A stretch of 64,000 bases of DNA from a virus: the UHGV virus genome UHGV-0332176. One strand, given 5' to 3'. This document shows, piece after piece, positions 19,624-63,094 of the stretch. The notes under the pieces were generated by a model. The model did not search any database. It saw nothing but the letters and a program-made list of their open reading frames with translations, and had not been told where the DNA came from. Position numbers and translations under genes: made by a program. The number at the start of each line of letters is the position of its first letter. Position 1 is the first letter of the stretch.

Positions 19624-19659
19624 AAAAATATTTATTTTACATTTTTTTAAAAAAAGTTC

Positions 19660-19694: not shown

Positions 19695-19922
19695 TGTAAT
19701 CAGAAATGATTATAAATCGCAATAAACCGCTTGAGTTCACTTGACAGACGATTATTTGTATTTTTCAATTTTTAAGCAAATAATACAAGATGAGATTAAA
19801 ATTGACGTTCATAGAATGGGTGAGAAAGTATTGGTATCAACAATCTAATCCCAGAGTGCCGAAGGACGAAGCAGTCGGACAATTTAAATAGGTTGGATTT
19901 GAGTAATCCAACCTATTTTTTA
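19695..19922 (+). ncRNA. candidate small RNA or leadered microORF transcript (promoter 19660 to terminator 19887-19922)
   Basis: About 230 nt with no annotated ORF. It includes a locally GC-rich segment (cccagagtgccgaaggacgaagcagtcggac), a possible 33-codon ORF (19791..19892, MRLKLTFIEWVRKYWYQQSNPRVPKDEAVGQFK) and an intrinsic terminator (aggttggatttgagtaatccaacctattttt). Confidence 0.35.
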
Positions 19923-19933
19923 TAAATATTATT

Positions 19934-23330: not shown

Positions 23331-23367
23331 AAATATGCAATAAATAATTCTTGTAAGAGATGCCTTA

Positions 23368-43017: not shown

Positions 43018-43025
43018 AAAAGTTC

Positions 43026-43060
43026 TTGACAAATATTTTTTTCTAATATATCTTATACTC
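43026..43060 (+). promoter_or_regulatory. early promoter (aaaaaGTTCTTGACA family)
   Basis: aaaaagttcTTGACAaatattttttctaatatatcttatact upstream of 43103. Confidence 0.5.
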
Positions 43061-48681: not shown

Positions 48682-51420
48682 ATGGCAATTAATTGGATAA
48701 CTGCACAAGGAATTTTATTAAAAGATTATGAAGAAGCACCTGCTAATAATATTTTTATACAGGTTGAACCAACAACTTCAATAATCAAAAAAATAGCAGG
48801 AGAATATCCATTAAATATGGATTTAGTTTATGTTGAACCAGGAAAGTATCAATTAATAAGTACAACTGGTAAATTGCCAATTGTTAATGAAGAAACAACT
48901 TATTATTTTACATTAAGAGCTGAAAATGAAGATGAATATTCAGACAGATGGTTTGGAATAACTATTTTAAATAAACAAACTGATTGGGATATGCCAGAAA
49001 CATATTTTGAATATTCAGAAACATCTTATGTTTCATTACAAATGAAATTATTAAATGCTCAAGGAAATGAAGAATTTTTTAAAATATCTGGTGAAATGCC
49101 ACCAAGTTTATTAATTAATAAATCTGGATTAATTTATGGAATAGTTGATGAACAAGATAAAGAAAAAACATTTTATTTTACAATTGGTGTTCGCCGTGAT
49201 GATAACATTATCTTAACAAAAGATTTTAGTATAAAAGTTGTTAAATTATCATCATTAAATGAACCGATTTGGATTACTGAAGCAGGTTTTTTAGGTGTTT
49301 TAGAATATGATGAATCTTCTAATTTATTTGTTAAAGCGTATGACCCGAATGGTTTACCAATAACGTATACTTTATCAACATCAGGTAATGATAATTTACC
49401 ACCTGGTTTATATTTAGATGAAAATACAGGTAAAATTAAGGGTCGCTTATCAACTCGTTATACTGATACTTGGAATTTTACTATTAATGTAACTAATGGA
49501 GATTATACAGTTTCTCGTGATTTTTATATTAATACGAATGTAATTTCAGAAAATAATAAAATTGAATGGGTTTCTGAATCTTTATTAGGGAATATTGCTA
49601 TTGGAAATAATGTATATATTCAATTAGAAACTAATTCTAAAAAAACAGTAAATTATACTATTGTTAGTGGAAATTTACCAGCGGGTTTATCATTTTCATC
49701 AACTGGTTCAATAAATGGTGTTCTGGAATATCAAGAAATTAAACCTTACTCTTTTATTGTTGAAGCATCTAATGGTTCAAATGTTATTCAAAAAGAATTT
49801 ACAATTAATGTTATTAAAGGGTTAGGTCAAAATGCATTAAAATGTTTTTATTATATTAATAATGAATATATGGTTGAATATAATGAAATGAAAAACTCTT
49901 TTGATACAGAAACTGCTTATCAACCATTAAATAGCAAATATGATATTAATACAAAACCTCGTTTAGATATTTGTACATTAAATTGCTTTGATAAAATTTT
50001 ATTAAAACATATATTAAATTTTAATTCAACAGATTCTTATCATTGGAAACGAACTGTTAAACAAGATTTTAATAATATATATTCAGTTTATTATAAAGAA
50101 TTACAAGAAGTTAATAGTGATTCAAACACTTATCATATAAATGGAAATAAAACTTTTATTAAACAATCAGAAACTTCACCAACTGGTTGGGTTACTGAAT
50201 ATGGAAATACTCCAATTCAACCTAATTCAACATTAGGTAATGATTGGATAGATGGTAAAAAATATTATATTAATTCTTTTAATGAAAAAATTTATATAGA
50301 ATTTTTAAATGATTCAATGTATTATGAAATAGAAACTTTAAAAATTGTACCTTTTGGAACACCTATTTTTAAAGAACAAAAAACTTTTCAAAATGAATTA
50401 ATTGAATATCTTTATATTTTAAATAATGAAAATAAAATTTATGTAACACAAGCTGCTGATAATCAATTATTAAATATTGAAACACAAACAGTTTTATCAG
50501 ATACAAAAGAAAATATTGAAGTATTACAAGATGAAAGAACAAGAAGATGGTATTTTATTCCTGATAGTTCTTTAAATATTGTACCTGCATCAGTAACAGG
50601 TATTAGAGATGCTTTAAATACTCAAATTTTTGTTGAAAAGAATAATAATTTAAATGTTGTTTATGATGTAGCAACACAAGTTATTATAAATGGAATTGAT
50701 ACATCTAAAAAATTTATAATTAAATGGGATAATGAACGAAAAACTTATTATACAGAATTTAATGGGGAAGAAGTTTATTTAGATGTATATGCTGTATTAG
50801 AAACTGACCCAACAAAAACACCAATTCAAGTTGAAGGATTTATTAATGGTACAAATTATCAATTAGTTAGAGTATGGCAACAATTTAATAACACAGATGT
50901 TGATTATTTAAATTATTTGGTTTATGAAAAAGGTACTAATAAATTAGAAGAAAATATTATTTTTGAATTAGATTGGAATAAAGGAAGTGAATTCATTATT
51001 CAAAATGGTGTTGTTCATTTTATTAGTTATATTGATACTCCTTGGATGTATAAACCAGAATTAAATGAATCAGTTGGTTATGGTGAAGAAATAGTTTTAC
51101 CTTATATTTTAGATTATGATGTTAGAGATATAAATTCAAAGCCATATATCTATTTTTTTGATAAAGAAAATGAATCTTTAATTGAATGGAAAAATAGATA
51201 TTATCCAACACTTGATTTATTTTATTCAATACCAAATACAAATGTTGTATCATTATCTAATTTAAATCAACAAGAACGTGATGGAAAATATTGGACTGGT
51301 AAAAAATTTGTATTTTTTGAAGTAACATTTGAACCTATTTATAATAAAAATATTGACATTTTCTCAATACAATTTTACAATCATAATCAAGAATATTCAC
51401 CAGAATTTCAATTAATTTAG
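48682..51420 (+). CDS. large virion structural protein (912 aa)
   Basis: Long ORF with repeated Ig-like segments (..LPPGLYLDENTGKIKG.., ..LPAGLSFSSTGSINGV..). Confidence 0.55.
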   Translation: MAINWITAQGILLKDYEEAPANNIFIQVEPTTSIIKKIAGEYPLNMDLVYVEPGKYQLISTTGKLPIVNEETTYYFTLRAENEDEYSDRWFGITILNKQTDWDMPETYFEYSETSYVSLQMKLLNAQGNEEFFKISGEMPPSLLINKSGLIYGIVDEQDKEKTFYFTIGVRRDDNIILTKDFSIKVVKLSSLNEPIWITEAGFLGVLEYDESSNLFVKAYDPNGLPITYTLSTSGNDNLPPGLYLDENTGKIKGRLSTRYTDTWNFTINVTNGDYTVSRDFYINTNVISENNKIEWVSESLLGNIAIGNNVYIQLETNSKKTVNYTIVSGNLPAGLSFSSTGSINGVLEYQEIKPYSFIVEASNGSNVIQKEFTINVIKGLGQNALKCFYYINNEYMVEYNEMKNSFDTETAYQPLNSKYDINTKPRLDICTLNCFDKILLKHILNFNSTDSYHWKRTVKQDFNNIYSVYYKELQEVNSDSNTYHINGNKTFIKQSETSPTGWVTEYGNTPIQPNSTLGNDWIDGKKYYINSFNEKIYIEFLNDSMYYEIETLKIVPFGTPIFKEQKTFQNELIEYLYILNNENKIYVTQAADNQLLNIETQTVLSDTKENIEVLQDERTRRWYFIPDSSLNIVPASVTGIRDALNTQIFVEKNNNLNVVYDVATQVIINGIDTSKKFIIKWDNERKTYYTEFNGEEVYLDVYAVLETDPTKTPIQVEGFINGTNYQLVRVWQQFNNTDVDYLNYLVYEKGTNKLEENIIFELDWNKGSEFIIQNGVVHFISYIDTPWMYKPELNESVGYGEEIVLPYILDYDVRDINSKPYIYFFDKENESLIEWKNRYYPTLDLFYSIPNTNVVSLSNLNQQERDGKYWTGKKFVFFEVTFEPIYNKNIDIFSIQFYNHNQEYSPEFQLI

Positions 51421-51429
51421 GAGAATAAA

Positions 51430-51693
51430 ATGACAATGATTTTCTTTGAAGCAGATAAATTGAAAAATTTATCTAATATAGAGCTTATTAATAAAAGACA
51501 AGAATTAGAAGAACAATTATCTTCTGTTAAAAAAAATATAGTTTCATCTGATATTTTAAATTCAATGAATATGATACTTGAATATTATACTAATGAAATT
51601 GATGTAAGAATTGCATCGGGAACATTAGATATGGATGAAATTGAAGAATTAGAAGAAGAAAACTTTTTTAAGAAAATGAATGACAGAAAATAA
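51430..51693 (+). CDS. hypothetical small protein
   Basis: 87 aa. Confidence 0.45.
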   Translation: MTMIFFEADKLKNLSNIELINKRQELEEQLSSVKKNIVSSDILNSMNMILEYYTNEIDVRIASGTLDMDEIEELEEENFFKKMNDRK

Positions 51694-52213
51694 AGTAATT
51701 AATTTAGGAAATAGAGTTATTGATAATGATGGTAATGTTGTCTATTGTGTAGATGCATTAATAGAATTATTATATAATGGAGAAATACCATCTGAAATCT
51801 TATTTCCATATAATAATGAAGATGTTTTATTATTTAATAAATTTTCTTATGAAAATTTTGATGATATACAATATACATTACCAAAAAAATTATTAAGTGT
51901 GGAAGAAAGAAAAAATTTTTGGTTTTATCCCGATAGATATGATAATATTAATTTAGAAGAATATTTTTTAAATCTTTGTCAAACAGATATTGAACGACAA
52001 CGAGTTAAAGAAGAATTAGAACTTTATAAAGAAAAAGGATTTGAAAAATTTTTAAGATTTTGTATCTTTTTTTCCGATAAAATTATAGAAAATGATTGGG
52101 TAATTGGAGTTGGGCGTGGCTCATCTTGTGCTTCATACTTATTATATCTATTAAAAATACATTTAGTTGATTCAATAAAATATAATTTAGATATAAAGGA
52201 ATTTTTAAAATAA
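51680..52213 (+). CDS. hypothetical protein
   Basis: 177 aa. Confidence 0.45.
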   Translation: MTENKVINLGNRVIDNDGNVVYCVDALIELLYNGEIPSEILFPYNNEDVLLFNKFSYENFDDIQYTLPKKLLSVEERKNFWFYPDRYDNINLEEYFLNLCQTDIERQRVKEELELYKEKGFEKFLRFCIFFSDKIIENDWVIGVGRGSSCASYLLYLLKIHLVDSIKYNLDIKEFLK

Positions 52214-52941
52214 TGATTTTATATAATGATGATTGTTTAAAAATATTACCAATAATTGAAAGTAAATCAATTGATATGATTTGTTCTGATTTACCTTATG
52301 AAGTTACACAAAATAAATCAGATATTAAAATTCCTTTTGAACCATTGTGGAAAGAATATGAAAGAATAATTAAAGATAATGGATGTATTGCATTATTTGG
52401 TCAAGGAATTTTTTATGTTGATTTAGTAAATTCAAATCGTAAATTATTTAGATATGATTTAATTTGGAATAAAGTTTTAACAAGTGGTTTTTTAAATGCT
52501 AAAAGAATGCCTTTAAGACAACACGAACAAATTGCAATTTTTTATAAAAAATTGCCAACATATAACCCTCAATTTATTCAAGGAAAACCATCTCACGATA
52601 AAGGAACTGCTTATAAAACAAAAGAAACAGTAAATCAAAATTATGGTTATTATAAAGCAGTTGACGATGAACGCAAAGGTTCAACAGAAAAATATCCAAC
52701 AAGTATTTTAAAATTTATTAAACCTCATCCAAGTATTGCTAAACATAGAACAGAAAAATCTATTGAATGCTTAGAATGGCTTATTAAAACTTATACAAAT
52801 GAAGGTGAAACAGTTTTAGATAATTGTATGGGAGCAGGTTCGTGTGGTATTGCTTGTAAAAATACTAATAGAAATTTTATAGGTATTGAGTTAGATAAAC
52901 ATTATTTTGATATTGCAAAGGAAAGAATAACTAATGGATAA
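52213..52941 (+). CDS. DNA methyltransferase, beta-class (N6-adenine or N4-cytosine)
   Basis: The N-terminal DLPYEV (DPPY-like motif IV) is followed by a C-terminal LDNCMGAGSCGIA (motif I, FxGxG). This permuted order is typical of the beta group. Confidence 0.65.
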   Translation: MILYNDDCLKILPIIESKSIDMICSDLPYEVTQNKSDIKIPFEPLWKEYERIIKDNGCIALFGQGIFYVDLVNSNRKLFRYDLIWNKVLTSGFLNAKRMPLRQHEQIAIFYKKLPTYNPQFIQGKPSHDKGTAYKTKETVNQNYGYYKAVDDERKGSTEKYPTSILKFIKPHPSIAKHRTEKSIECLEWLIKTYTNEGETVLDNCMGAGSCGIACKNTNRNFIGIELDKHYFDIAKERITNG

Positions 52942-53311
52942 AGAATTTTTAAATAACTTATTTTTATGGTTAGCTGAACAACATATGAAAGATGTTGGTG
53001 GACAATTTGGACATTGGAATGAACGAGAAATTTTTAGTGATACAGAAAAAGATGAATATGGTTGTCCAAAATTTTTGGGAGTTGAAGAACTTCCAATAGA
53101 AGAATTATATGAAATTGTTGATAACCCAGTAGGTGATAAACAAGAATATAATGATTTATTTTTAGAAGAAACACCTGATGAATATAAATTTATCACATAT
53201 GAATATGTTGACCAGCAGGTTAATGGTGGTTATTCTGGTGATGATTATGCTGGCTATATATATTATCCATTACCAAATGGTAAATTTATGAAAGTTTATT
53301 ATAATTGTTAA
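52934..53311 (+). CDS. hypothetical acidic protein
   Basis: 125 aa. Confidence 0.45.
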   Translation: MDKEFLNNLFLWLAEQHMKDVGGQFGHWNEREIFSDTEKDEYGCPKFLGVEELPIEELYEIVDNPVGDKQEYNDLFLEETPDEYKFITYEYVDQQVNGGYSGDDYAGYIYYPLPNGKFMKVYYNC

Positions 53312-53320
53312 ATTTTTCTC

Positions 53321-53348
53321 TTGACAAGTAATTTTTCTATGTTATATT
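53321..53348 (+). promoter_or_regulatory. sigma70-type early promoter duplicated with its leader (compare 1356)
   Basis: ctcTTGACAagtaatttttctatgtTATATT, then a leader with the taacctt..aaggtta hairpin. Confidence 0.6.
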
Positions 53349-53384
53349 AACCTTATTAGAAACAAACAATGAAAGGTTAAAACA

Positions 53385-53843
53385 ATGGAAAAATATTTTA
53401 ATAAAAAACTTTATACAGATGTTCAATCTTGGAAAGTAATTGAACTTGATGAAGTTAAAGGTGAAGCAACAGTAATAGCTGTTGAAAAAGAACCTCAAAA
53501 TTTAGAATTTGTTGAAGGTGGATTTGCTGCTCATTGTGTAAACAATTATGAAGCATTTCAAAATGCTCCTATTGTTGAAGTTAAAGGTGCACAACCTTTC
53601 AAAGTTTACCGTAAAAAAGATGGTGTTTGGTATAAAAAGAACAAGGTTGGTTATTCTCTTGATAAAAGATTTGTTGATTTGGATGATTTAAAATCTAAAA
53701 TTGAAGATAATGAAGTAATTGAAGTTGATGAGTTCAGCGTTTACGTTTTAAAAGTTAAGAAAAATGGTCAATTACGAACAACTTTCACAAAATTTGGTGA
53801 AATGGAAGATGTTTGCCGTTATTTTTATGATTACAACTTTTAA
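53385..53843 (+). CDS. hypothetical early protein
   Basis: 152 aa. Confidence 0.5.
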   Translation: MEKYFNKKLYTDVQSWKVIELDEVKGEATVIAVEKEPQNLEFVEGGFAAHCVNNYEAFQNAPIVEVKGAQPFKVYRKKDGVWYKKNKVGYSLDKRFVDLDDLKSKIEDNEVIEVDEFSVYVLKVKKNGQLRTTFTKFGEMEDVCRYFYDYNF

Positions 53844-53857
53844 GAAGGAGAATAAAA

Positions 53858-54253
53858 ATGACTTCTAAAATTGATGAATTAAAAAGGCAATATGATGAAA
53901 TTGGTTTACAAATTGAATCATTGTATACTCAACGAATGAATATTGTAAATGAAATACATAATATTATTTTAAAAAATCATTTATATGAAACTGATTCAAT
54001 AAAATATGCTGAAAAGCATTTAGAAGAAATATCATTAATAATTGATAATGGCACAAGTATTGAAGTTGAGCATTTTAGAAATGTTAGTGTTGATGATGAT
54101 GGACATTTTAGTGCATATGATTGGGGAGAAATGAGTCATTCTGGTTATCGTTGGAGTGATTTAAAAAATTCTTATGTTACTGATAATTGTTTTGGTGATG
54201 ATAATGTACCTGTAAAAATTATTGGATTTTTTGATGTAAAAGTTGAAGAATAA
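53858..54253 (+). CDS. hypothetical protein
   Basis: 131 aa. Confidence 0.5.
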   Translation: MTSKIDELKRQYDEIGLQIESLYTQRMNIVNEIHNIILKNHLYETDSIKYAEKHLEEISLIIDNGTSIEVEHFRNVSVDDDGHFSAYDWGEMSHSGYRWSDLKNSYVTDNCFGDDNVPVKIIGFFDVKVEE

Positions 54254-54280
54254 AAAAATAAAAAAAATTAAAAAAAGTTC

Positions 54281-54309
54281 TTGACAAGTAAAATTATTTA
54301 TATTATATA
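54281..54309 (+). promoter_or_regulatory. early promoter (aaaaaGTTCTTGACA family)
   Basis: aaaaaagttcTTGACAagtaaaattatttatatTATATA. Confidence 0.55.
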
Positions 54310-54533
54310 TGTAAAAACAGAGAGGAAATGAGGTGAGATACCTTATTGAAAAAATTGAGTAAGAAGTACAATGAAAGATTTTTGATGGTGTATAAAAGCA
54401 ACACTCTGACAGTTATAAAAGTATTTTACAATATTTTTAATAGAGATATTATAAAATATTTTTAAAATTTTTAATTTATTATTATAAATATCTTATGAAT
54501 GAATAAATATTTTTGAAAAGAATAAAAAAAATC

Positions 54534-54562
54534 TTGACAATTAAAATAAATAAGTTTATAAG
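54534..54562 (+). promoter_or_regulatory. early promoter
   Basis: aaaaatcTTGACAattaaaataaataagttTATAAG with a 17-nt spacer. Confidence 0.55.
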
Positions 54563-54589
54563 AAAGTTATTAAAGGAAAAAAGTTTAAA

Positions 54590-54670
54590 ATGATACACAG
54601 TAATGTGGAAAATAATAGAGATTATCAAATGTTTGCGATTAAACCTGCAAGCAAAAGGGCTTATATGTAA
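54590..54670 (+). CDS. possible 26-aa microprotein between promoter 54534 and terminator 54701
   Basis: MIHSNVENNRDYQMFAIKPASKRAYM. Weak RBS (aaagga). Confidence 0.25.
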   Translation: MIHSNVENNRDYQMFAIKPASKRAYM

Positions 54671-54700
54671 CTATACATAGATATAAAAATAGATACAAAA

Positions 54701-54740
54701 TAAGCTCTAAAAAGAAAATCTTTAGAGCTTTTTCTTTTTA
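54701..54740 (+). terminator. rho-independent terminator
   Basis: aagctctaaaaagaaaatctttagagctttttcttttt. Confidence 0.7.
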
Positions 54741-54763
54741 ATAAAAATAAATTAAAAAAGTTC

Positions 54764-54792
54764 TTGACATTAAAAAATAAATGATGTATAAG
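54764..54792 (+). promoter_or_regulatory. early promoter
   Basis: aaaaaagttcTTGACAttaaaaaataaatgatgTATAAG. Confidence 0.55.
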
Positions 54793-54860
54793 AACAAATA
54801 TTGAAAGAAATTGAAAACATAAGTTGAAAAAAATCTTTCAAAAATATTTAAAAAAAGTTC

Positions 54861-54889
54861 TTGACAAACAAAATTAAATAGTTTATAAA
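54861..54889 (+). promoter_or_regulatory. early promoter
   Basis: aaaaaagttcTTGACAaacaaaattaaatagttTATAAA. Confidence 0.55.
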
Positions 54890-54896
54890 GAACACA

Positions 54897-55380
54897 TAAG
54901 AACGAAAGTTCTTGTTATAAAAGAAAAAATGGAGACCTTGCTCCTTGATAAACTTTAAATAATCTAAATCACCAAGGGATAACCTGACGACCATATAGTG
55001 TAACAGCGGATATGGAGAACGGTTTGAGAGAGATAGCAAAAACCTCTCAATTTATATAAATTGTTAATATCTGAAAAGATGAGAACTTTGTTGTATAACG
55101 ATGGCAGTATCGGAGACTGGAAAAATGCTTCGGATTAACAATTTATATAAATTATTCAATTAAAAGAAAAATATTAAATATATCCGTGAAATACCTCCTT
55201 TTTATGTTTCCGAAAATTAAAAACATTGATTGAATAATTTAAATTATGTCTCGACTCTTGAAAGATAGAATATCGGGGCGACAATTTGAAATATAATTGT
55301 CCGTTATGGGTGATGTTGGAAAGGTTAGCGAATCCCGAATCATACGAAAATGATAAAATAAGAAAACCTTTCAATATTTA
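54897..55380 (+). ncRNA. candidate non-coding transcript(s) downstream of promoter 54861, leading into the tRNA cluster
   Basis: No plausible ORF. It contains hairpins and two copies of the 16-bp palindrome caatttatataaattg (55048-55063 and 55139-55153). Confidence 0.25.
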
Positions 55381-55382
55381 AT

Positions 55383-55469
55383 GGGCAGGCTGCGAAGTTG
55401 GAGAGTCGCCTTTGACTGTAAATCAAATCCCTTCGGGGTGAGTGTGTTCGAATCACACCCTGCCCACCA
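55383..55469 (+). tRNA. tRNA-Tyr (anticodon GTA), type II with a long variable arm
   Basis: Acceptor gggcagg/cctgccc, D arm gcga..tcgc, anticodon stem tttga/tcaaa with loop ctGTAaa, variable hairpin, T arm gtgtg ttcgaat cacac, ends ACCA. Confidence 0.8.
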
Positions 55470-55602
55470 TTTAAAATATATTATTTAATTAGTTAATTTG
55501 ATGAAATATATATTTAGTTAATATATAAAATAATCTATGAAAGAAGTGAAAATTCTTTCATATTATTTAACTAATAAACTTTAACTAATTAAATAATATA
55601 TT

Positions 55603-55679
55603 GGACATATAGCTCAGTCCAGTAGAGCACCAGACTGAAAATCTGGGTGTCGGTGGAGCGAAGCCACCTGTGTCCACCA
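55603..55679 (+). tRNA. tRNA-Phe (GAA)
   Basis: Acceptor ggacata/tgtgtcc (one G-U pair), anticodon stem ccaga/tctgg with loop ctGAAaa. The T loop is unusual (agcgaag). Ends CCA. Confidence 0.65.
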
Positions 55680-55820
55680 ATTTTAAAAATATGGAACTCA
55701 TAAAAGTAATATTATTAGTATGCTATTAGCGATATAGACGAAAGTGAAAATAATATGAAATGAACGGAGTTTAAATTCCATAGACTATATTCGAAAAGAT
55801 AGGTATAGTCATTTATAAAT

Positions 55821-55897
55821 GGGCCAGTAGTTCAGCTGGGAGAACGCCTGCTTTGCACGCAGGATGTCGTGGGTTCAAGCCCCACCTGTGTCCACCA
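55821..55897 (+). tRNA. tRNA-Ala (TGC), possibly defective (acceptor stem mismatched)
   Basis: The body matches tRNA-Ala (gttcagctgggagaac, cctgc tttgcac gcagg, gtggg ttcaagc cccac). The 3' strand ctgtgtcc does not pair with the 5' strand gggccag (ctggccc would be expected). The last 21 nt are identical to the 3' end of the tRNA-Phe gene. Confidence 0.45.
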
Positions 55898-55904
55898 ATT
55901 TTAT

Positions 55905-55980
55905 TCCTCGTTAGCTCAATGGTTAGAGCAATCGGCTGTTAACCGATAGGTTTGGGGTTCGAGTCCCTAACGGGGAGCCA
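55905..55980 (+). tRNA. tRNA-Asn (GTT)
   Basis: Acceptor tcctcgt/acgggga, D arm gctc aatggtta gagc, anticodon stem atcgg/ccgat with loop ctGTTaa, T arm tgggg ttcgagt cccta, ends GCCA. Confidence 0.8.
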
Positions 55981-56301
55981 CTTTTTAATAAAAGTTTTGT
56001 ATGAAAACTAGTGAGTAATACAAAAAGTTTAACCCAACTGTACTTCAACAGGGTTCTTACAGAAGAAATAATCTGTCGTAGGATAGAAAATGTCTATGTT
56101 ATGGAAGTGTACACCAAAGTTTTGGCGTTTGAGTGGTAGTTACCAAATAAAACTATAAACTACCATATTTACAGTTTTTAGCTTAACATTATGTTAAGTA
56201 TTACAGAAAAAGTCTTTTGGGTCTCTACCAAAAGCGTTGAACTGGACGGCTATGGGCAGATGGTTCTTATGTAGAATACGATAAATTCTACAATTTTATA
56301 T

Positions 56302-56380
56302 CGGGTAGTCGCCTAATCTGGTATGGCACTTGCTTTGGGAGCAAGAAAAATTGGCGGTTCAAATCCGTCCTACCCGACCA
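56302..56380 (+). tRNA. tRNA-Pro (TGG)
   Basis: Acceptor cgggtag/ctacccg, anticodon stem cttgc/gcaag with loop ttTGGga, T arm ggcgg ttcaaat ccgtc, ends ACCA. Confidence 0.75.
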
Positions 56381-56429
56381 TATATTTAATAAATACTTGT
56401 ATAAATAACAAGTTAAGGATTATTAAGTC

Positions 56430-57011
56430 GTGATTAATAGATTTGAAAAGATAGAAAATGAAAAATTTATAGAAATATTTAATACTTCTGAAAGTAAAGG
56501 TGAAATTTGTCGTAAATTAAATATGCATAATAATGGTAAATCTATGAAATATATTAATGCAATGATTAAAGAACTTGGTTTGAATATAAATATTTTTAAA
56601 GAAAATCATTTCAATAAATATCATATAAAAAAGATTTGCCCTGTATGTGGTAAAGAATTTATTACAACAACAACGGAAAAAGGTAAGAATAAGGTATGTT
56701 GCTCATATTCGTGTGCTAATACTTATTTTCGTAGTGGTGAAAATAATGGAATGTATAAAAATTCTAATCTTTCAGGAAGAAATTCTTATTCAACTATTTG
56801 TTTTAGACATCATCCTCATAAGTGTTGTATATGTGGCGAAGAAAATATAGTTGCTGTTCATCATTATGATGGTAATCATAATAATAATGATATAAGTAAT
56901 TTAATTCCTTTATGTCCAACACATCATTGTTATATACATTCACGATTCAAAAATAAAATACAAGATAAAGTTGATGAATATAGAAATAATTTTATAAAAT
57001 CAAATAGTTAA
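56430..57011 (+). CDS. HNH homing endonuclease with an N-terminal zinc-finger DNA-binding module (GTG start)
   Basis: CPVCGKEF..CCSYSCANTY (zinc finger, homologous to the N-terminus of 59708) and CCICGEENIVAVHHYDGNHNNNDISNLIPLCPTHHCYIH (HNH motif). It lies inside the tRNA cluster. Confidence 0.65.
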   Translation: MINRFEKIENEKFIEIFNTSESKGEICRKLNMHNNGKSMKYINAMIKELGLNINIFKENHFNKYHIKKICPVCGKEFITTTTEKGKNKVCCSYSCANTYFRSGENNGMYKNSNLSGRNSYSTICFRHHPHKCCICGEENIVAVHHYDGNHNNNDISNLIPLCPTHHCYIHSRFKNKIQDKVDEYRNNFIKSNS

Positions 57012-57285
57012 TAATTTTTCTAAATGGTGCTGAATTACCACAAGTACTTATTTCAGTTAAATGTAGTTGCAAAAAATATGGTCGCTCCATAAGAACTCAA
57101 GCCATTTAAACTTTGGGTTAATGCATACCAATAGTCCAAAGCATTCGAAGTCAGCCGCTTCGTAAAATAGGAGTATAGTTTTTTGAATATTTTGACTAGA
57201 CTATAAATATTCTCCATCTATGGAAGAAATAGTCGTGGATATTGACTAACCCGAAGTATTACGAGAAGATACTTCAAATTTTAAT

Positions 57286-57361
57286 GGTTCGGTGACAGAA
57301 CGATTAATGTACTCGCCTGCAAAGCGATGTTTAGTGGGTTTGACTCCCACCCGAATCTCCA
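57286..57361 (+). tRNA. possible tRNA-Cys (GCA) with a non-canonical D and T loop
   Basis: Acceptor ggttcgg/ccgaatc, anticodon loop ctGCAaa, T arm gtggg tttgact cccac, ends TCCA. It lacks the G18G19 and T54-psi55-C56 consensus, so it may be a pseudo-tRNA. Confidence 0.3.
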
Positions 57362-57531
57362 ATTTATTTTTTAAGAATGGTGAGAAATTGATTTACATAG
57401 ACTGGAAATCCGTGTGTAGAAAGTTCGATTCTTTCCCCATCGACCATTTAACGGTGGGTAGCTCATTGGTAGAGCAACGTTAAATGATAATCAATTGTTA
57501 TGTTCCTTCTTAATTTTTTATAAAAAAGTTC

Positions 57532-57560
57532 TTGACATTAAAAAATTATGTGTTATATTA
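57532..57560 (+). promoter_or_regulatory. early promoter (aaaaaGTTCTTGACA family) driving 57606..57839
   Basis: aaaaagttcTTGACAttaaaaaattatgtgtTATATT. Confidence 0.55.
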
Positions 57561-57605
57561 CCATTATCAAATGATGATAACATTTTTTAATGAAAGAAAA
57601 ATAAA

Positions 57606-57839
57606 ATGGCAAATACAAATTCAAATTTAGAATTAGGTAAAATTGAAAACAAATGTGGATTTCATATTCATATGGTTCTTTTTGGTGTTAAAAGTGATAT
57701 TATTCGTTATGATATTACTCTTGAAGAAGCTAAAGATTTAATTAATAAAGCTAAAAAAGAATGCGAAAGAGCAGGAATGGAATTCCAATTAATTGAATTT
57801 GAGGAAGTCAAAGTTTCCGTAAAGAAACTTAAATTTTAA
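57606..57839 (+). CDS. hypothetical small protein (promoter-ORF-terminator cassette inside the tRNA cluster)
   Basis: 77 aa with its own promoter and a downstream hairpin (57854-57892). Confidence 0.5.
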   Translation: MANTNSNLELGKIENKCGFHIHMVLFGVKSDIIRYDITLEEAKDLINKAKKECERAGMEFQLIEFEEVKVSVKKLKF

Positions 57840-57853
57840 AAGTTTTGGTAGTT

Positions 57854-57892
57854 GGAAGTTAAGCTATTAGGGCAGGAGCAACTTAACTTCCA
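57854..57892 (+). terminator. hairpin (putative terminator)
   Basis: ggaagttaagc..gcaacttaacttcc. Confidence 0.45.
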
Positions 57893-58432
57893 TCTATTGA
57901 TACGAATCCTGATTTATTAATTACCTTCACGTGGTTCAGGATGTAAGTAAGAATTGCAGTTTATAACATAAGACAATTTCTGAAACTAAAAATTAATTTT
58001 TAAAATGATTTAATTGAATTATAGTAAATTAAATAAGTTGATTAAATACGTGAGCAATATAGAATCAACAATTGGTATAAAAGCAGATTATAACCGAACT
58101 ACTTAGGCTTACGGTAGACGTAGGGTATAACCACGATTAGGGCAATTTATTTTGAATCTTCATTATGAGTCCTCAACAAATATAATCGTTTTTAAAAAAT
58201 TCTGCATATTTAAATTTTTAAAATTATCTTTATGATGTCTTTCGTTCCTTTCATTGTTGTTACATAAAGATAATTTTGGAGAGATTAATCTCTCCACTTA
58301 TAGAAACATTAAAGATGTCAGTTCGAATCTGACCTGCCTGAATAAAAACTTTTAATATTAAATTGATATTAAAAGTCGGGTGGTAGTAATAACGGTAGAA
58401 TAGTAATGTTGCTATAAATGGAGAATTTTTAT

Positions 58433-58507
58433 GGGTGTATAAGTCAACGGTTAGACTAACAGCCTTTTAAGCTGTAGATGAGGGTTCGATTCCCTCTGCA
58501 CCTACCA
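58433..58507 (+). tRNA. tRNA-Lys (TTT)
   Basis: Acceptor gggtgta/tgcacct, D arm agtc aacggtta gact, anticodon stem acagc/gctgt with loop ctTTTaa, T arm gaggg ttcgatt ccctc, ends ACCA. Confidence 0.8.
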
Positions 58508-58535
58508 ATTTATATTATTGTAGTTAAATACTTTA

Positions 58536-58607
58536 ATGTATCGTCTAATGGCAAGACACCCTCTGTTCGTGTTGAGGGAAATATAGGTTCGAATCCTAAT
58601 AATCATT
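58536..58607 (+). ncRNA. tRNA-like element with a canonical T arm (ggttcgaatcc) but a 10-nt loop on the ccctc/gaggg stem and no CCA
   Basis: gtctaatggcaagac (D-arm-like), then ccctc tgttcgtgtt gaggg, then aataggttcgaatcctaat. It cannot be folded as a standard tRNA by eye. Confidence 0.2.
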
Positions 58608-58873
58608 AAAAATATATAAGAAAAATAACAAGTTTCTTTTTTGATAATTTGGTATTGGAAATTAATGCCCAATTATGACAAGTATTTAACAAAATTTCCT
58701 GACTCTAATCAAAGAATTAGTGATTGATAATTTAATAATTATCTGTGTGCGTGATATGACACCCTTTATCAACGCTTGCATACAAGACTGCATAAATCAA
58801 GATGGGTAGGTGGCTGTTTATCCGTTTCACCTTTCAAATGATAAACAAAACGTTAAAACGGATTGCATTTTAT

Positions 58874-58948
58874 TCTGGTGTAGCTCAATGGTGGAGCAAT
58901 CGGCTGTTAACCGAAAGGTTGTAGGTTCAAGTCCTATCGCCAGAGCCA
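58874..58948 (+). tRNA. tRNA-Asn (GTT), second copy
   Basis: Acceptor tctggtg/cgccaga, anticodon loop ctGTTaa, T arm gtagg ttcaagt cctat, ends GCCA. Confidence 0.8.
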
Positions 58949-59179
58949 ATTATAATAGTAATCATAATATTTAATTTAATAGGATTTTGGTAGCTAGATA
59001 ACCCAAGATATGAAAATTAATATTGATGATATGGTTTAAGATTTTGACCATTAACCGTAATGAAAATCCAGTTTATTTATTGTACTCGGTTAACAATAAC
59101 GTAGAATTGGTAATTCTTAGAAAGGTACGTTAAGCCTTTTATTAAATAAATATCTTATATAATTTATGAGGTATTAAAG

Positions 59180-59602
59180 ATGAGATTAATAGACATATTA
59201 GCATTATTTAAAGCTATTAAAAATACTGCTAAAAAATATCATTGGAAAACAACAGGTTCAACTTTTATGTCAGACCATTTATTATTTGATAGAATTTATG
59301 ATGATATTGATGATGACCAAGTTGATACAATTGTTGAACAATATTATATGGGTGTTGGAAGAAAAGATATTAATGATTTAGATAATTTAATTACATTATC
59401 TGCACAATATGAAGGTAAATCATTTTCTGCAACTTCTGAAAGTATAATTTTAATGTATCAAGAATTAGCAAGAATGATGAATACATTTTTAATTAATATT
59501 GAAAAATTAAATTTATTAAGAGGTATTAATTCTGAATTAGATAATCTTTCTTCAACTATTACACAATTATATGGTTTAGTAACTGCAAGATTATGTCAAT
59601 AA
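59180..59602 (+). CDS. Dps/ferritin-like protein
   Basis: ALFKAIKNTAKKYHWKTTGSTFMSDHLLFDRIYDDIDDDQVDTIVEQY matches the Dps signature (L..L....Y.KTHN.HWNV.G..F..LH..FEE.Y......D.iAERi). Confidence 0.4.
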   Translation: MRLIDILALFKAIKNTAKKYHWKTTGSTFMSDHLLFDRIYDDIDDDQVDTIVEQYYMGVGRKDINDLDNLITLSAQYEGKSFSATSESIILMYQELARMMNTFLINIEKLNLLRGINSELDNLSSTITQLYGLVTARLCQ

Positions 59603-59604
59603 TT

Positions 59605-59682
59605 GGGGCTGTGGGCGAATTGGTAGAGCCACCACCCTTTCAAGGTGGATTCTTGCCCGTTCAAGTCGGGTCAGTCCTACCA
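59605..59682 (+). tRNA. tRNA-Glu (TTC)
   Basis: Acceptor ggggctg/cagtcct (two G-U pairs), anticodon stem ccacc/ggtgg with loop ctTTCaa, T arm gcccg ttcaagt cgggt, ends ACCA. Confidence 0.65.
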
Positions 59683-59707
59683 TTTTTTATTAAGAAAGAA
59701 ATAAAAA

Positions 59708-60423
59708 ATGTATATATGTAAGAATTGTGGTAAAGAATTTTTAGAAAAATATAGCAAATGGTCAAATGGAGATTTTTGTTGTAAAGAATGTGCTAGAAGT
59801 TATTCAACAAAAAATAAAAGACAAGAAATTAATGAAAAAGTTTCTAAAACATTAAAAGGAAGAATTATTGGAAAAAATTCTTTATTAAAAAATATTAATA
59901 TTAAGCAACAATATGAAAAAGCTCCTTTATTATGTCCAATATGTAACAATATAATTTTATATGAAAGATATATTAAACATAGAAAAACTTGTAGTACAGA
60001 ATGTGGTAAAGAATTAGCAAAAAGAAATCATTCTCATCAAGGTGGTGGTTATAGAAAAAGAGCAGGAAGAAGTAAGCACGGATATTACAAAGGAATTTAT
60101 TGTGATTCAACTTATGAGTTAGCTTATTTAATTTATTGTTTAGACCATAATATTAATATTAAAAGATGTGAAGAAACATTTGAATATGAATATAATGGAA
60201 AAAACATAAATATCATCCTGATTTTATTGTTAATGATGAAATTATAGAGATAAAAGGTTATCATAATAATTTGGTCGATATTAAAATGAAATCTATTATA
60301 AATAGAAAATATAAAATATTATATATTAATGATTTATTTAAATCATTTGAATATGTTAGTAAAGCATATAATAAAAAATTTCATAATAAATGGAATAATT
60401 TTTATGAATTATATGATGAATAA
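59708..60423 (+). pseudogene. PD-(D/E)xK-type homing endonuclease with an N-terminal zinc-finger module, interrupted by a -1 frameshift at A_AAA_AAC (60199-60205)
   Basis: Frame 0 (59708..60247) carries CKNCGKEF..CCKECARSY and CPICNN..CSTECGKEL zinc ribbons plus GIYCDSTYELAYL. The -1 frame is open from 60196 and reads KKHKYHPDFIVNDEIIEIKGYHNN.. (PD...EIK nuclease motif) through to 60423. Confidence 0.45.
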
Positions 60424-60424
60424 T

Positions 60425-60504
60425 GGTGTGTGGGAGAGCTGGGTGTTCTCGCCTGCCTGTCACGCAGGAGATTCAGAAGGGTTCGAACCCCTTACACACC
60501 GCCA
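60425..60504 (+). tRNA. tRNA-Asp (GTC)
   Basis: Acceptor ggtgtgt/acacacc, D arm gaga gctgggtgt tctc, anticodon stem cctgc/gcagg with loop ctGTCac, T arm aaggg ttcgaac ccctt, ends GCCA. The variable region is slightly long. Confidence 0.6.
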
Positions 60505-60709
60505 ATTTTTTGAGATATATGCCTAGCAGTTTTCGGTAAAAAATCAAGAAAACAAATGCCTGTATGGTTAAGACATATATCTATCGTCTGTGGAAAATAA
60601 TAGTCCGTAAGGTTCTGTAATACAAGATATTATAGGTTAAATGTTCAGCTATCGAACGGAGAATAGCCAAACCAGCAAATAAGGTGGAAAGCCTTATATT
60701 AATTGTTAT

Positions 60710-60785
60710 GGGTGTGTAGCTTAAATGGTAGAGAAACTGACTCTTAATCAGTATGATGAGGGTTCGAAGCCCTCTGCACCCACCA
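60710..60785 (+). tRNA. tRNA-Lys (CTT)
   Basis: Acceptor gggtgtg/tgcaccc, anticodon stem actga/tcagt with loop ctCTTaa, T arm gaggg ttcgaag ccctc, ends ACCA. Confidence 0.75.
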
Positions 60786-60798
60786 AAAAAATAATTAT

Positions 60799-60874
60799 GC
60801 ACCCATAGGCTAATTGGACAAACCCAAAGTCTTCTAAACTTTTATTACAGGTTCGAGTCCTGTTGGGTGTGCCA
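60799..60874 (+). tRNA. tRNA-Arg (TCT)
   Basis: Acceptor gcaccca/tgggtgt, anticodon stem aaagt/acttt with loop ctTCTaa, T arm cagg ttcgagt cctg, ends GCCA. Confidence 0.8.
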
Positions 60875-61115
60875 GTTATAATTTTATTAAATAATTTGCC
60901 AGCAGGGAAAAGTGAAATGACGCTTCCACCCACTTATTAGGGTTAGATATAGCATCCTTTGCCGTGATGTTTAGTCAGCATCCTTGAAGTTTCATATTGA
61001 GGAAACTTGACATCGTGAAGGAAAGGTTAAACGTCAGACCATAAATAATGGAACAGTTTGTAAAAGAGCCTTTTAAACTGTGGAATAAGTGGCAAATTAT
61101 TTAATAAAATTTTTA

Positions 61116-61247
61116 TGATGAAACGGTGTGGCGGTGTACATATCTGAAAGTAATAGACCTGGTCTTTTAATTTGAAAGTGAAAATTAAACAAAGGTATTA
61201 CCGTTAGAGGAAGTAAGAAGTCAATGGTTCAACTCCATTTTTCATCA
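61116..61247 (+). ncRNA. 132-nt tRNA-like RNA (candidate stable RNA analogous to T4 RNA C/D species)
   Basis: Perfect 8-bp closing stem tgatgaaa/tttcatca and a canonical T arm atgg ttcaact ccat immediately before the 3' strand. The body (~100 nt) is far too long for a tRNA and there is no ORF. Confidence 0.35.
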
Positions 61248-61252
61248 TTTAT

Positions 61253-61328
61253 GCTCGGTTAGTTCAGCTGGAAGAACATCGCTTTTACACAGCGAGGGTC
61301 GGGAGTTCAAACCTCTCACCGAGTACCA
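61253..61328 (+). tRNA. tRNA-Val (TAC)
   Basis: Acceptor gctcggt/accgagt, D arm gttc agctggaa gaac, anticodon stem tcgct/agcga with loop ttTACac, T arm gggag ttcaaac ctctc, ends ACCA. Confidence 0.8.
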
Positions 61329-61330
61329 AT

Positions 61331-61404
61331 TTCGGGGTCGTCTAGTGGTAGGACATTGCACTTTGACTGCAATAACGTTGGTTCGAATCCAGCTCCCGAA
61401 GCCA
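61331..61404 (+). tRNA. tRNA-Gln (TTG)
   Basis: Acceptor ttcgggg/tcccgaa, anticodon stem ttgca/tgcaa with loop ctTTGac, T arm gttgg ttcgaat ccagc, ends GCCA. Confidence 0.8.
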
Positions 61405-61683
61405 ATTTTTAACTTGGGTTTTAACATTTTTATCCCTTTTCCGAAAAAGAAAATGTTAATAGTTGTAATTACAACTCGTTGAGGAATACTATCGTGAAAA
61501 AGTATTGGTTTATTGATTGTTTTTTATATGCTTTGGAACTCCCAGAGACCTGAAATCAATAAGGTATAATAAAGCATCTTAATTTAATAATGGGTAAGAT
61601 TGTAGAATCTCTGATATTAAATTTTAAAGTTTTATTCGTGAATACGGAAACAATGTTAAGTACGTTAATCTTAACAATTTTAT

Positions 61684-61775
61684 GGTGAGTTGGTAGAGTC
61701 AGGTTTAATACAGCAGTTTGCTAAACTGTCGCTTCCGAAAGGTTGCCAGAGGTTCAAATCCTCTACTCACCGCCA
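61684..61775 (+). tRNA. tRNA-Ser (GCT), type II
   Basis: Acceptor ggtgagt/actcacc, anticodon stem gcagt/actgt with loop ttGCTaa, a ~17-nt variable arm, T arm agagg ttcaaat cctct, ends GCCA. Confidence 0.75.
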
Positions 61776-61814
61776 TTAAAAATTAAAAAAATAAAAAAAG
61801 TTCTTGACAATTAA

Positions 61815-61843
61815 GAATTTAAAGAATATATTCTTTATATAAG
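61815..61843 (+). promoter_or_regulatory. early promoter (aaaaaGTTCTTGACA family)
   Basis: aaaaaaagttcTTGACAattaagaatttaaagaaTATATT. Confidence 0.55.
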
Positions 61844-61849
61844 GTGCTG

Positions 61850-62005
61850 ATATGCCTTAAATCAAAATTATCAGTCCGAGTTTAAAGTTTGGGGTGAGAT
61901 AAACTTTGGTTTAAAGTAATCCAGAAACTTTGGTTTCAATATTTCGCATTAAAATATTGCGTTGGACTGATTATCCCAAAACCATTACGATAAGATGGTT
62001 TATTT
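61850..62005 (+). ncRNA. candidate small RNA or leader with triple aaactttgg(t) repeats, upstream of tRNA-Ile
   Basis: gtttaaagtttggggtgagataaactttggtttaaagtaatccagaaactttggtttcaa. No ORF. Confidence 0.25.
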
Positions 62006-62008
62006 AAT

Positions 62009-62085
62009 AGGCTCGTGGTGGAAGTGGTTAACACGTTGCTCTGATAAAGCAAAGATTCCCAGTTCGATTCTGGGCGAGCCTACCA
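62009..62085 (+). tRNA. tRNA-Ile (GAT)
   Basis: Acceptor aggctcg/cgagcct, anticodon stem ttgct/agcaa with loop ctGATaa, T arm cccag ttcgatt ctggg, ends ACCA. Confidence 0.75.
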
Positions 62086-62119
62086 AATTTAAAATAATTT
62101 ATTTGTGGGAGTATTATAA

Positions 62120-62332
62120 ATGCCAATGGAAAAGAAAGTTTTAACTGATGCAGAAAAAGAATTAAAAAAGAAAGAACACGAATTTAATAAGAAAATTAAT
62201 CAAGTTTGGAAGTTAAGACCATATAAAATTAATGGAATTTCTAAAAATGTTGGTAAAGCTCCAAAATGCAATACAAAAGTTAAAACTGAAAAACCAGTAG
62301 AAATGGTAAATCAGAAAAAGAAAAAGAGATAA
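62120..62332 (+). CDS. small lysine-rich basic protein
   Basis: 70 aa with an RBS (gggag). Confidence 0.45.
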   Translation: MPMEKKVLTDAEKELKKKEHEFNKKINQVWKLRPYKINGISKNVGKAPKCNTKVKTEKPVEMVNQKKKKR

Positions 62333-62340
62333 AAATAAAT

Positions 62341-62416
62341 GCTCCGATAGGCTATGTGGTTAAACCAGGGAGCTTATATCTCTCAATGCACGGTTCGAGT
62401 CCGTGTCGGAGTACCA
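62341..62416 (+). tRNA. tRNA with anticodon TAT (AUA-decoding Ile-like)
   Basis: Acceptor gctccga/tcggagt, anticodon stem gggag/ctctc with loop ctTATat, T arm cacgg ttcgagt ccgtg, ends ACCA. The D-arm pairing is ambiguous by eye. Confidence 0.55.
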
Positions 62417-62422
62417 TATTTT

Positions 62423-62498
62423 TCTCCGATAGCTAAACGGTTAAAGCTGTCCGCTCATAACGGAAAGATTGGGGGTTCGATTCCCTCTCGGAGAACCA
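62423..62498 (+). tRNA. tRNA-Met (CAT) or tRNA-Ile2 (CAT modified to LAU)
   Basis: Acceptor tctccga/tcggaga, anticodon loop ctCATaa, T arm ggggg ttcgatt ccctc, ends ACCA. Confidence 0.7.
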
Positions 62499-62808
62499 TT
62501 TTTATAAAAGTTTTGGTTCAGACAATACGCACAAGGTGAAGATAGCACAACGGTGATGAACCATTGATATAAAAAGAATGATTTAGCGGTCATAAACTAT
62601 TATATTATAAAAGTGTCTGATGACTTTAGTTCTTTTCAATAAGGAAAAGAGTTGCAACAACCATTAATTTAAATGTTTGCTAACAAGTTCATTTAAATTA
62701 AGTATGGTAATAATGTTAGAGGAAAAATTTATTGATTTGACTATGTTAAAATCAATCGGTGAATTTTAATAATTCTCATAAATCATCTGTTAAGTGATTA
62801 TTATATAT

Positions 62809-62883
62809 AGCGGGATAGAGCAGGGGTAGCTCACTTGGCTCATAACCAAGAGGTCGGGTGTTCGAGTCACTCTCCCGCAACCA
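62809..62883 (+). tRNA. initiator-like tRNA-fMet (CAT)
   Basis: Strong similarity to bacterial initiator tRNA: 1-72 mismatch (A1/A72), agcggga..tcccgca acceptor, gagc aggggta gctc, anticodon stem cttgg/ccaag with loop ctCATaa, ends AACCA. Confidence 0.7.
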
Positions 62884-62993
62884 TTTAATAGGTAGGTACG
62901 AAGATAGCTCAAATACCTCGTAAAACTAAATAGTCGTGCTATCCGCAAACTTTTGTAGAGTAAATGGCGATATAAGTAACTCTACATTTTAAT

Positions 62994-63069
62994 GGCAGAT
63001 TAGTGAAATGGTTTATCACGGCTGACTCATATTCAGCAATTACAAGTTCAATTCTTGTATCTGCTACCA
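62994..63069 (+). tRNA. tRNA (CAT): Met elongator or Ile2
   Basis: Acceptor ggcagat/atctgct, D arm gtga aatggttta tcac, anticodon stem gctga/tcagc with loop ctCATat, T arm acaag ttcaatt cttgt, ends ACCA. Confidence 0.75.
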
Positions 63070-63094
63070 ATAATTTTTTTGTGGGAAATAATCA

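Follow-up and report, generated by a model that had tools for sequence, protein, structure and literature searches.

A repeated near-consensus promoter that probably heads small self-contained units and serves as a recombination site in a human-gut phage

Background

Small units that are inserted between phage genes and consist of a promoter, an open reading frame (ORF) and a terminator are reportedly called morons by Hendrix and colleagues; they are defined in temperate phages, where they are expressed from the prophage. The tRNA region of phage T4 yields the small stable RNAs species 1 and 2 (rnaC/rnaD), which come from the tRNA precursor and have no promoters of their own. T4-like phages also contain promoter-early stem-loops (PeSLs; Arbiol et al. 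2010, PMC2839356; Comeau et al. 2014, PMC4122927), i.e. repeated sigma-70-like promoters with AT-rich upstream sequence and stem-loops, which lie in hyperplastic regions and mediate modular shuffling (PMC2839356, PMC4122927). Here we analyse a repeated 15-mer, AAAAAGTTCTTGACA, in a 64,000-nucleotide stretch of the virus genome UHGV-0332176 (one strand; hereafter the window), with emphasis on a block of four copies (P1 to P4) that precedes an array of tRNA genes. We consider it likely that the repeat belongs to a near-consensus promoter that heads small self-contained units, and that its copies double as recombination sites.

Architecture and distribution of the promoter repeat

Seven exact copies of the 15-mer start at positions 19651, 43017, 54272, 54755, 54852, 57523 and 61795 of the window, and an eighth copy, at 54525, has two mismatches and reads AAAAAAATCTTGACA. 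With up to two mismatches allowed, these eight sites compare with 0.88 ± 0.99 in 100 dinucleotide shuffles, none of which reached eight. This bears out the original prediction of an extended −35 motif repeated along the DNA, including the four tandem copies, which are located within 54272–54889. The ten sites listed at that time need revision, however: TTGACA is present at nine of the ten positions, the site placed at 61815 is actually at 61804, and those at 1356 and 53321 are without A-tract and GTTC and represent a second family, conserved in its own right (ttttctcTTGACAagtaattttt.tatgTTATATTAACCTTAT). All eight family copies are on the + strand, and their TTGACA hexamers lie outside ORFs and are oriented with the downstream genes; the 15-mer at 43017 overlaps just the final base of the stop codon of a UvsX-like gene. 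Intergenic TTGACA hexamers account for 15 of the 26 on the + strand vs none of the 13 on the − strand, in a window of which ∼18% is non-coding.

The motif consists of an A-tract, then TCTTGACA, then 16–17 nt and a TATAWN −10 hexamer. If TTGACA is taken as −35 to −30, conservation further covers C (−36), T (−37 and −38), G (−39) and A (−40 to −44 or −46). The −35 hexamer is a perfect TTGACA in all eight copies. The predicted spacer of 16–17 nt is found throughout, while the predicted TATAAt-like −10 holds as TATAWN in seven copies and fails at 43026, where TATCTT is found. In E. coli-type promoters, TCTTGACA is the extended −35 consensus for sigma-70. Scanning positions 50000–64000 for generic sigma-70 sites gave 100 compared with 98.6 in shuffles; because there is no excess, the signal is the extended motif and not loose −35/−10 matches. 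The likening of the A-tract to an UP element also stands, as positions −46 to −38 fit the proximal UP subsite consensus AAAAAARNR (PMC4132738) at 7–9 of nine positions in every copy. Like promoters of the rrnB P1 type, the copies have an A-tract (about −46 to −40) that abuts the −35 and are found before stable-RNA genes, but they differ from that type in having T rather than R at −38 and five −10 hexamers without the T at −7.

Relatives were collected in three ways, by looking up exact proteins, by a scan based on alignment and by a single metagenome scan. The four-copy block, compared in nine related sequences, shows variation in one of 48 hexamer columns (one of 24 for the −35) and five of 68 spacer columns vs 36–44% of leader and gap columns, and all four −10 hexamers are invariant across relatives. 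Four lineages carry unrelated DNA ahead of P1, but each retains an A-tract that adjoins TTGACA through GTTC, GTC or ATAC. The 16-mer AAAAAAGTTCTTGACA also occurs in identical form ∼50 nt upstream of the first tRNA of the array in a Felix O1-like Salmonella phage (OL800606, 8994–9038), an unrelated phage with an enterobacterial host; there it is a single copy, without small-RNA units between it and the tRNAs, and with a different −10 and spacer.

A search of viral contigs for the 15-mer returned mostly single chance matches, with multiple copies in one contig only (IMGVR_UViG_3300007538_000076). This unrelated viral contig (41% GC) has six exact copies of AAAAAGTTCTTGACA between 542 and 8793, with a GGTTAYATT −10 after each, together with some ten more TTGACA promoters of similar build. 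A literature search for GTTCTTGACA matched primers only.

Given the near-invariant hexamers, an A-tract that is kept on unrelated flanks and the occurrence in unrelated phages, the motif seems to be under selection and not simply copied, and looks like a preference determined by RNA polymerase and not a private phage signal. Sequence evidence thus supports a family of housekeeping-sigma promoters that carry an UP-like A-tract, and we infer that transcription would initiate at the predicted promoters early and strongly, with the A-tract contacted by RNA polymerase via its alpha subunit's C-terminal domain.

A different role could be proposed for the GTTCTT beside the −35, namely that it is the half-site of a phage or host regulator and, with AAGAAC after the −10, forms operators that turn these promoters on or off. 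Palindromes of the form AAGAAY-N(0–8)-RTTCTT number four vs 0.6 expected, and three of them are at family promoters (43010, 61822 and 54898, the last reading AAGAACGAAAGTTCTT at about +2 to +18 of P4). AAGAAC also stands right after the −10 of both P3 and P4, and one relative (L218) has GTTCTTacaAAGAAC upstream of P4. We nevertheless find such operators improbable: GTTC is replaced by GTC, ACTC or ATAC in the orthologous promoters of relatives while the A-tract and −35 are kept; the 15-mer is also found in unrelated phages with other hosts; TCTTGACA is in itself the extended sigma-70 −35 consensus; the palindrome at 54898 is also explicable as the 5′ hairpin of the RNA that follows P4; and no candidate regulator was identified.

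The four-promoter block and its transcription units

Promoter P1 (54265–54309, + strand) consists of the A-tract and GTTC (54265–54280), the −35 TTGACA (54281–54286), a 17-nt spacer and the −10 TATATA (54304–54309). It is followed by sRNA1 (54316–54478, + strand), a candidate structured non-coding RNA of ∼150 nt that contains a 5′ hairpin (54327–54347), further helices and an AU-rich terminal hairpin of 18–22 bp (54416–54465) with a U run. The P1 transcript has a fold z of −3.34 against shuffles. The consensus structure of six distinct sequences comprises 49 pairs, with 99.7% of cells paired and four pairs that show compensatory changes; its covariation score is reached by none of 500 shuffles, and slid controls score 0–1. 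In one relative (L219), substitutions improve the terminal AU hairpin. Folding and covariation together lead us to read the P1 unit as a small RNA. An ORF of 39 aa with a TTG start that overlies sRNA1 is not conserved and was rejected as coding: non-synonymous changes are numerous, L219 has only a truncated version, and the substitutions fit the base pairs. It is the longest + strand ORF in the block, which agrees with the predicted lack of coding capacity.

Promoter P2 (54518–54562, + strand) carries the variant AAAAAAATCTTGACA, with its −35 at 54534–54539 and its −10 TATAAG at 54557–54562; both hexamers are invariant in the nine sequences. Downstream of it is the 26-codon ATG micro-ORF that had been noted originally (MIHSNVENNRDYQMFAIKPASKRAYM; 54590–54670, + strand), which has 27 codons and a GTG start in relatives. 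This is the least variable stretch of the block (two of 81 columns vs 12 of 27 in the leader): the start is kept as ATG or GTG, a 3-nt TCA indel is in frame and one change is non-synonymous. Because the micro-ORF shows zero synonymous changes, peptide and RNA cannot be told apart as the constrained product. The unit is closed by a strong intrinsic terminator (54702–54741, + strand) with a 12-bp stem (AAGCTCTAAAGA / TCTTTAGAGCTT) followed by TTTTTCTTTTT, as expected from the terminators described between the promoters, and the region 54600–54745 has a fold z of −4.13. This terminator lies directly upstream of P3, a stem-loop and promoter layout as in PeSLs.

Promoters P3 and P4 are diverged 97-bp tandem duplicates, with GAACA.ATA after the −10 common to both. 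P3 (54748–54792, + strand) has an exact 15-mer, its −35 at 54764–54769 and its −10 TATAAG at 54787–54792. Its initial transcribed region (54798–54851, + strand) contains the hairpin TTGAAAG...CTTTCAA (54801–54841) and runs into P4; the fold z is −2.1, and 15 of 54 columns are variable, mostly in the loop. P4 (54845–54889, + strand) again has an exact 15-mer, with its −35 at 54861–54866 and its −10 TATAAA at 54884–54889, and its upstream sequence AAAAATATTTAAAAAAA, in which an A-tract is followed by a T-tract, resembles a full UP element.

The region after P4 would encode sRNA2 (54896–55062, + strand), a conserved RNA of ∼167 nt with a 5′ hairpin (AAGAAC-GAAA-GTTCTT, 54896–54918), internal hairpins and a terminal hairpin (TTGAGAG...CTCTCAA, 55024–55050) followed by TTTATAT. 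Variation is low (14 of 167 columns in nine sequences), and compensatory changes occur in two helices, i.e. CCAUAU/AUAUGG and the terminal GAGAG/CUCUC, which becomes GAGGG/CCCUC. A covariance-model search with sRNA2 in 0.73 Mb of sequence recovered orthologues only, without paralogues or distant homologues, and the Rfam 15 covariance models gave no match at E ≤ 1 in 54200–55382. Scanning the window for antisense targets of all units yielded just unconvincing AT-rich matches of 12–14 nt in coding sequence (common Asp-Leu-Asp-Tyr codons). We also considered sRNA2 as a CRISPR-like or solitary repeat and rejected it; a 13-nt resemblance to a Cas12a repeat was treated as chance and no repeat array is present.

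The 15-mer CAATTTATATAAATT, with the palindrome AATTTATATAAATT inside it, ends two successive RNA units (55048–55062 and 55139–55153). This 15-mer resembles a module border of a second kind or a processing site, since L127 and L211 pass into unrelated sequence precisely there. The stretches 55063–55152 and 55153–55382 are conserved and non-coding, with fold z values of −1.4 to −1.7.

The view that the block drives short non-coding transcripts only thus survives in part: the P1 and P4 RNAs are folded or show compensatory changes, whereas P2 heads a micro-ORF with a kept start. Overall, the original observation was partly confirmed and its interpretation partly supported. Four near-consensus −35/UP copies within 600 bp of scant coding capacity might also act as a sink that titrates host RNA polymerase, or produce functionless decoy transcripts. 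We give this, including the decoy idea raised originally, almost no credence, since the transcribed parts are conserved (the micro-ORF, 2/81, and sRNA2, 14/167) and show compensatory pairing, neither of which a pure sink needs, and four sites could hardly titrate thousands of polymerase molecules.

No comparably good promoter was found between 54861 and 57532, and P4, with read-through from the other copies of the block, is therefore the likeliest source of transcription for the first tRNA genes. The terminal hairpin of sRNA2 is weak (7 bp with a 13-nt loop), and transcription probably leaks past it into the tRNA array. These two observations would also suit a rather unlikely alternative, in which the folded stretches are leader and spacer of one long tRNA precursor that serve its processing or stability, and the four promoters are additive, like tandem rRNA promoters. 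The Felix O1-like phage, with the same promoter directly before its tRNAs, and T4, which processes small stable RNAs from tRNA transcripts, point in the same direction. However, the P2 unit closes with a strong 12-bp terminator and T run, the 18–22 bp hairpin and U run of sRNA1 are kept via compensating changes, and one relative (L126) is without three of the four units and keeps its tRNAs; these three units are hence not needed for tRNA expression. The evidence against a single precursor holds for P1 to P3 and less so for P4. By description, the units resemble T4 rnaC/rnaD in being small structured RNAs beside a phage tRNA cluster, but the T4 RNAs are processed from a tRNA precursor whereas the units here carry promoters of their own.

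Conservation and rearrangement among relatives

Two relatives, L211 and L212 (IMG/VR contigs of 286 kb and 217 kb), are 92% identical to the window over the block (54251–55069) vs 69% over the flanking coding DNA; their two nearest ORFs are 62–65% identical in protein sequence and their UvsX is 76% identical. Homology begins exactly at the P1 promoter and stops at CAATTTATATAA after sRNA2. A homology breakpoint exactly at a promoter is found in L127, L129, L130, L211, L218 and L219. In L126, 54307–54826 is missing and the upstream flank of P1 is joined to the P4 spacer, which amounts to a 580-bp deletion with its crossover inside AAAAAAAGTTCTTGACAA, a sequence common to P1 and P4. In L218, P4 and sRNA2 stand behind a different upstream sequence. 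The segment 57519–57836, which has its own family promoter, is missing as a unit from L211 and L212. An additional gene of 114 aa, absent from the window, is inserted immediately upstream of P1 in four relatives (L127, L129, L130 and L220), and the tRNA region as a whole is mosaic among relatives. These patterns indicate that the repeats are recombination points and cassette borders, a role absent from the original prediction. The copies would serve as sites of homologous recombination because 15–18 identical bases are common to them.

The 114-aa gene (L127:6900–7244, L129:6190–6534 and L130:1985–2329) lies between a 131-aa gene and P1, and weakly matches the C-terminal (S4-like) domain of tyrosyl-tRNA synthetase.

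Crossovers and cassette borders at the repeats, an AT-rich non-coding region and T4-like recombination genes might suggest that the repeats are not gene-expression promoters but ends of recombination or mobile elements, or origin promoters that prime replication by R-loops (as in T4 oriF/oriG). This is highly improbable. The −35/spacer/−10 geometry is kept with near-invariant hexamers, every copy is oriented with the downstream genes, cumulative GC skew has no inflection at 54–55 kb and the spacing (253, 230 and 97 bp) is not regular as for iterons. In addition, T4 origins use MotA-type middle promoters and not TTGACA.

Comparison with PeSLs and morons

The repeats resemble PeSLs in several respects: (i) they are sigma-70-consensus repeats with an AT-rich stretch before the −35; (ii) they lie in plastic regions, flank small non-essential units and act as crossover points, represented here by the natural 580-bp deletion; and (iii) the phage has T4-like UvsX and gp32 genes and is a possible member of the T4-like group. 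They differ in that an upstream stem-loop is present only before P2 (54416–54465), P3 (54702–54730), P4 (54801–54841) and the P4 of L218; the cargo here is structured small RNAs, a micro-ORF and tRNAs, compared with ORFans only in PeSLs; and the host here would be a low-GC gut bacterium, not a proteobacterium. Because the stem-loop is found at only some copies, we do not file the repeats as PeSLs proper, although they would work like them.

Similarity to morons lies in units with their own promoter and terminator (i.e. P2 with the micro-ORF, and the 19660 promoter with a 33-aa ORF) and in an insert (57519–57836) that is present or absent among relatives. In contrast to morons, a repeated promoter is shared here and the cargo is partly non-coding. 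The locus would be a system of promoter-bounded cassettes, akin to PeSLs or morons, with small RNAs as cargo. Repeated promoters as recombination joints are already known from T4-like phages, and the promoter family itself is ordinary.

Proposed mechanism and points against it

In our proposal the repeat makes up the upstream half of a near-consensus promoter that the host housekeeping RNA polymerase would recognise, and the phage would place this promoter ahead of small, self-contained transcription units, both in the plastic region that holds its tRNA genes and at a handful of intergenic sites elsewhere. P1 would produce a structured small RNA of ∼150 nt that ends in a long AU hairpin; P2, the 26/27-codon micro-ORF with its strong terminator; P3, a short duplicate with a hairpin only; and P4, an RNA of ∼167 nt whose weak terminal hairpin would let transcription on into tRNA-Tyr, Phe, Ala, Asn and Pro. 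Homologous recombination between copies would then delete, insert and re-flank the units.

Several points weigh against this proposal. Five of the eight −10 hexamers (TATAAG, TATAAA and TATATA) are without the normally critical T at −7, which is present only at 57532, 61804 and, weakly, 43026, and the −10 of the 43026 copy is poor; promoter strength is consequently not secure, and the copies may depend on an activator or on another sigma factor. Part of the high conservation of the block might stem from recent transfer between phages and not from constraint. The fold of sRNA2 is not better than shuffles (z = −1.7), and the covariation of both RNAs draws on only 4–6 distinct sequences. A stem-loop is absent before P1, 43026 and 61804, and the stem-loops that do occur are not one repeated sequence. 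Finally, the sole, weak hint to the host is a relative's UvsX gene on a contig binned as "Bacilli bacterium".

Family copies outside the block and a second promoter family

Outside the block the family also heads small protein ORFs. The copy at 19651–19688 (+ strand) heads a leader, a 33-aa ORF (19790–19891) and a strong terminator (19886–19923), while that at 43017–43054 (+ strand; −10 TATCTT) heads a 73-aa ORF (43103) and an SPFH/Band-7 gene. The cassette at 57519–57836 (+ strand) comprises the 15-mer at 57523, a −10 TATATT with TG and a 77-aa ORF (57606–57839). The last copy (61795–61832, + strand) is flanked by tRNA-Ser and tRNA-Ile; the palindrome AAAGAATATATTCTTT overlies its −10, and its promoter (61804) heads the leader of tRNA-Ile. 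One relative (L131) carries aaaaaactcTTGACA at the position that matches the 43017 copy; in more distant relatives, with UvsX 59–64% identical, a promoter after UvsX was not found.

The 33-aa ORF (MRLKLTFIEWVRKYWYQQSNPRVPKDEAVGQFK) has no clear ribosome-binding site and is followed by a 14-bp terminator; the unit headed at 19660 is moron-like. The second promoter/leader family has the form ttttctcTTGACAagtaattttt.tatgTTATATTAACCTTAT...GAAAGGTTAA..ATG and is found at 1340–1420 and 53305–53385 of the window and at 20390–20470 of L131. It has its own conserved −10 and leader, and is also conserved in the relative with a 76% identical UvsX. Its leader can pair TAACCTT with AAGGTTA, which would cover the ribosome-binding site.

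The tRNA region and neighbouring RNA genes

There are 19–22 tRNA genes from 55383 on; among them (noted at 62341–62416 and 62423–63069) are a tRNA-Ile whose anticodon is UAU and three tRNA-Met genes. ORFs are interspersed among the tRNAs at 56430–57011, 59180–59602 and 59708–60247, and this segment is absent or replaced in L127. Over ∼146 nt, the DNA of the 193-aa ORF among the tRNAs is 79% identical to genes of Serratia phage BF and Xanthomonas phage XbC2, of which the XbC2 gene is annotated as an HNH endonuclease, and the ORFs at 56430–57011 and 59708–60247 both have a repeated TGTGGTAAAGAATT (Cys-Gly-Lys-Glu-Phe) motif. The interspersed ORFs probably encode homing endonucleases, which contribute to the mosaicism.

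A match to the Y-RNA-like YrlA family (RF02553) is found at 57394–57507 (+ strand; region 57286–57507), after a tRNA-Cys-like gene called by Rfam only. Its score of 40.7 bits falls short of the gathering score (69); its tRNA-like arms and closing stem align and the Ro-binding stem does not. A few kb downstream, a TROVE/Ro60 protein is encoded in related contigs (L124:15751–16190 and L126:12543–13132), so that Ro60 and a Y-RNA may be present in the phage as a pair.

More tentatively, the block may be read as an island of two undescribed structured RNAs and an ultra-conserved 26/27-codon RNA, each with its own promoter, that could act as early effectors of host takeover or counter-defence and move as promoter-bounded cassettes. 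Under this possible but doubtful reading, the RNAs would stand beside the tRNA array, the Y-RNA-like gene and the Ro60 gene.

The phage and its relatives

The window has ∼25% GC overall (range 21–33%), and nearly all of its genes are on the + strand. They include UvsX-like recombinase and gp32-like single-strand-binding protein genes (T4-like), and genes for a ClpB-like ATPase, a CCA-adding-type nucleotidyltransferase (22077–23330, with PolyA_pol domains), and virion and tail-fibre proteins. Exact-protein look-ups matched scaffolds of 284–286 kb, which gives a phage of ∼285 kb with 25% GC, and a DNA-pattern scan found the promoter block again in human gut metagenome assemblies. No close relative was found among the GenBank phages searched, and relatives of the 131-aa and 167-aa neighbour proteins were not found in viral contigs. 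Judging from the scaffold sizes, the gut metagenome matches and the lack of a close GenBank phage, the window is part of an uncultivated human-gut jumbo phage.

Positions 1–21 of L222 are a remnant of a Nextera adapter (AGATGTGTATAAGAGACAG), i.e. an assembly artefact in the public record. A weak match to the ROSE_3 thermoregulator (23354–23418, + strand; 32.5 bits against a gathering score of 43, E = 0.007), upstream of the ORF at 23413, is probably due to chance.

Implications

The repeat provides a usable promoter model for an uncultivated, very AT-rich clade of human-gut jumbo phages. It would also extend the PeSL idea, in which a promoter is both expression signal and recombination joint, to small-RNA cassettes. 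The conservation of the two structured RNAs and of the micro-ORF exceeds that of the neighbouring proteins; they are therefore concrete candidates for phage regulatory or anti-defence RNAs, and are the parts of the locus that merit follow-up.

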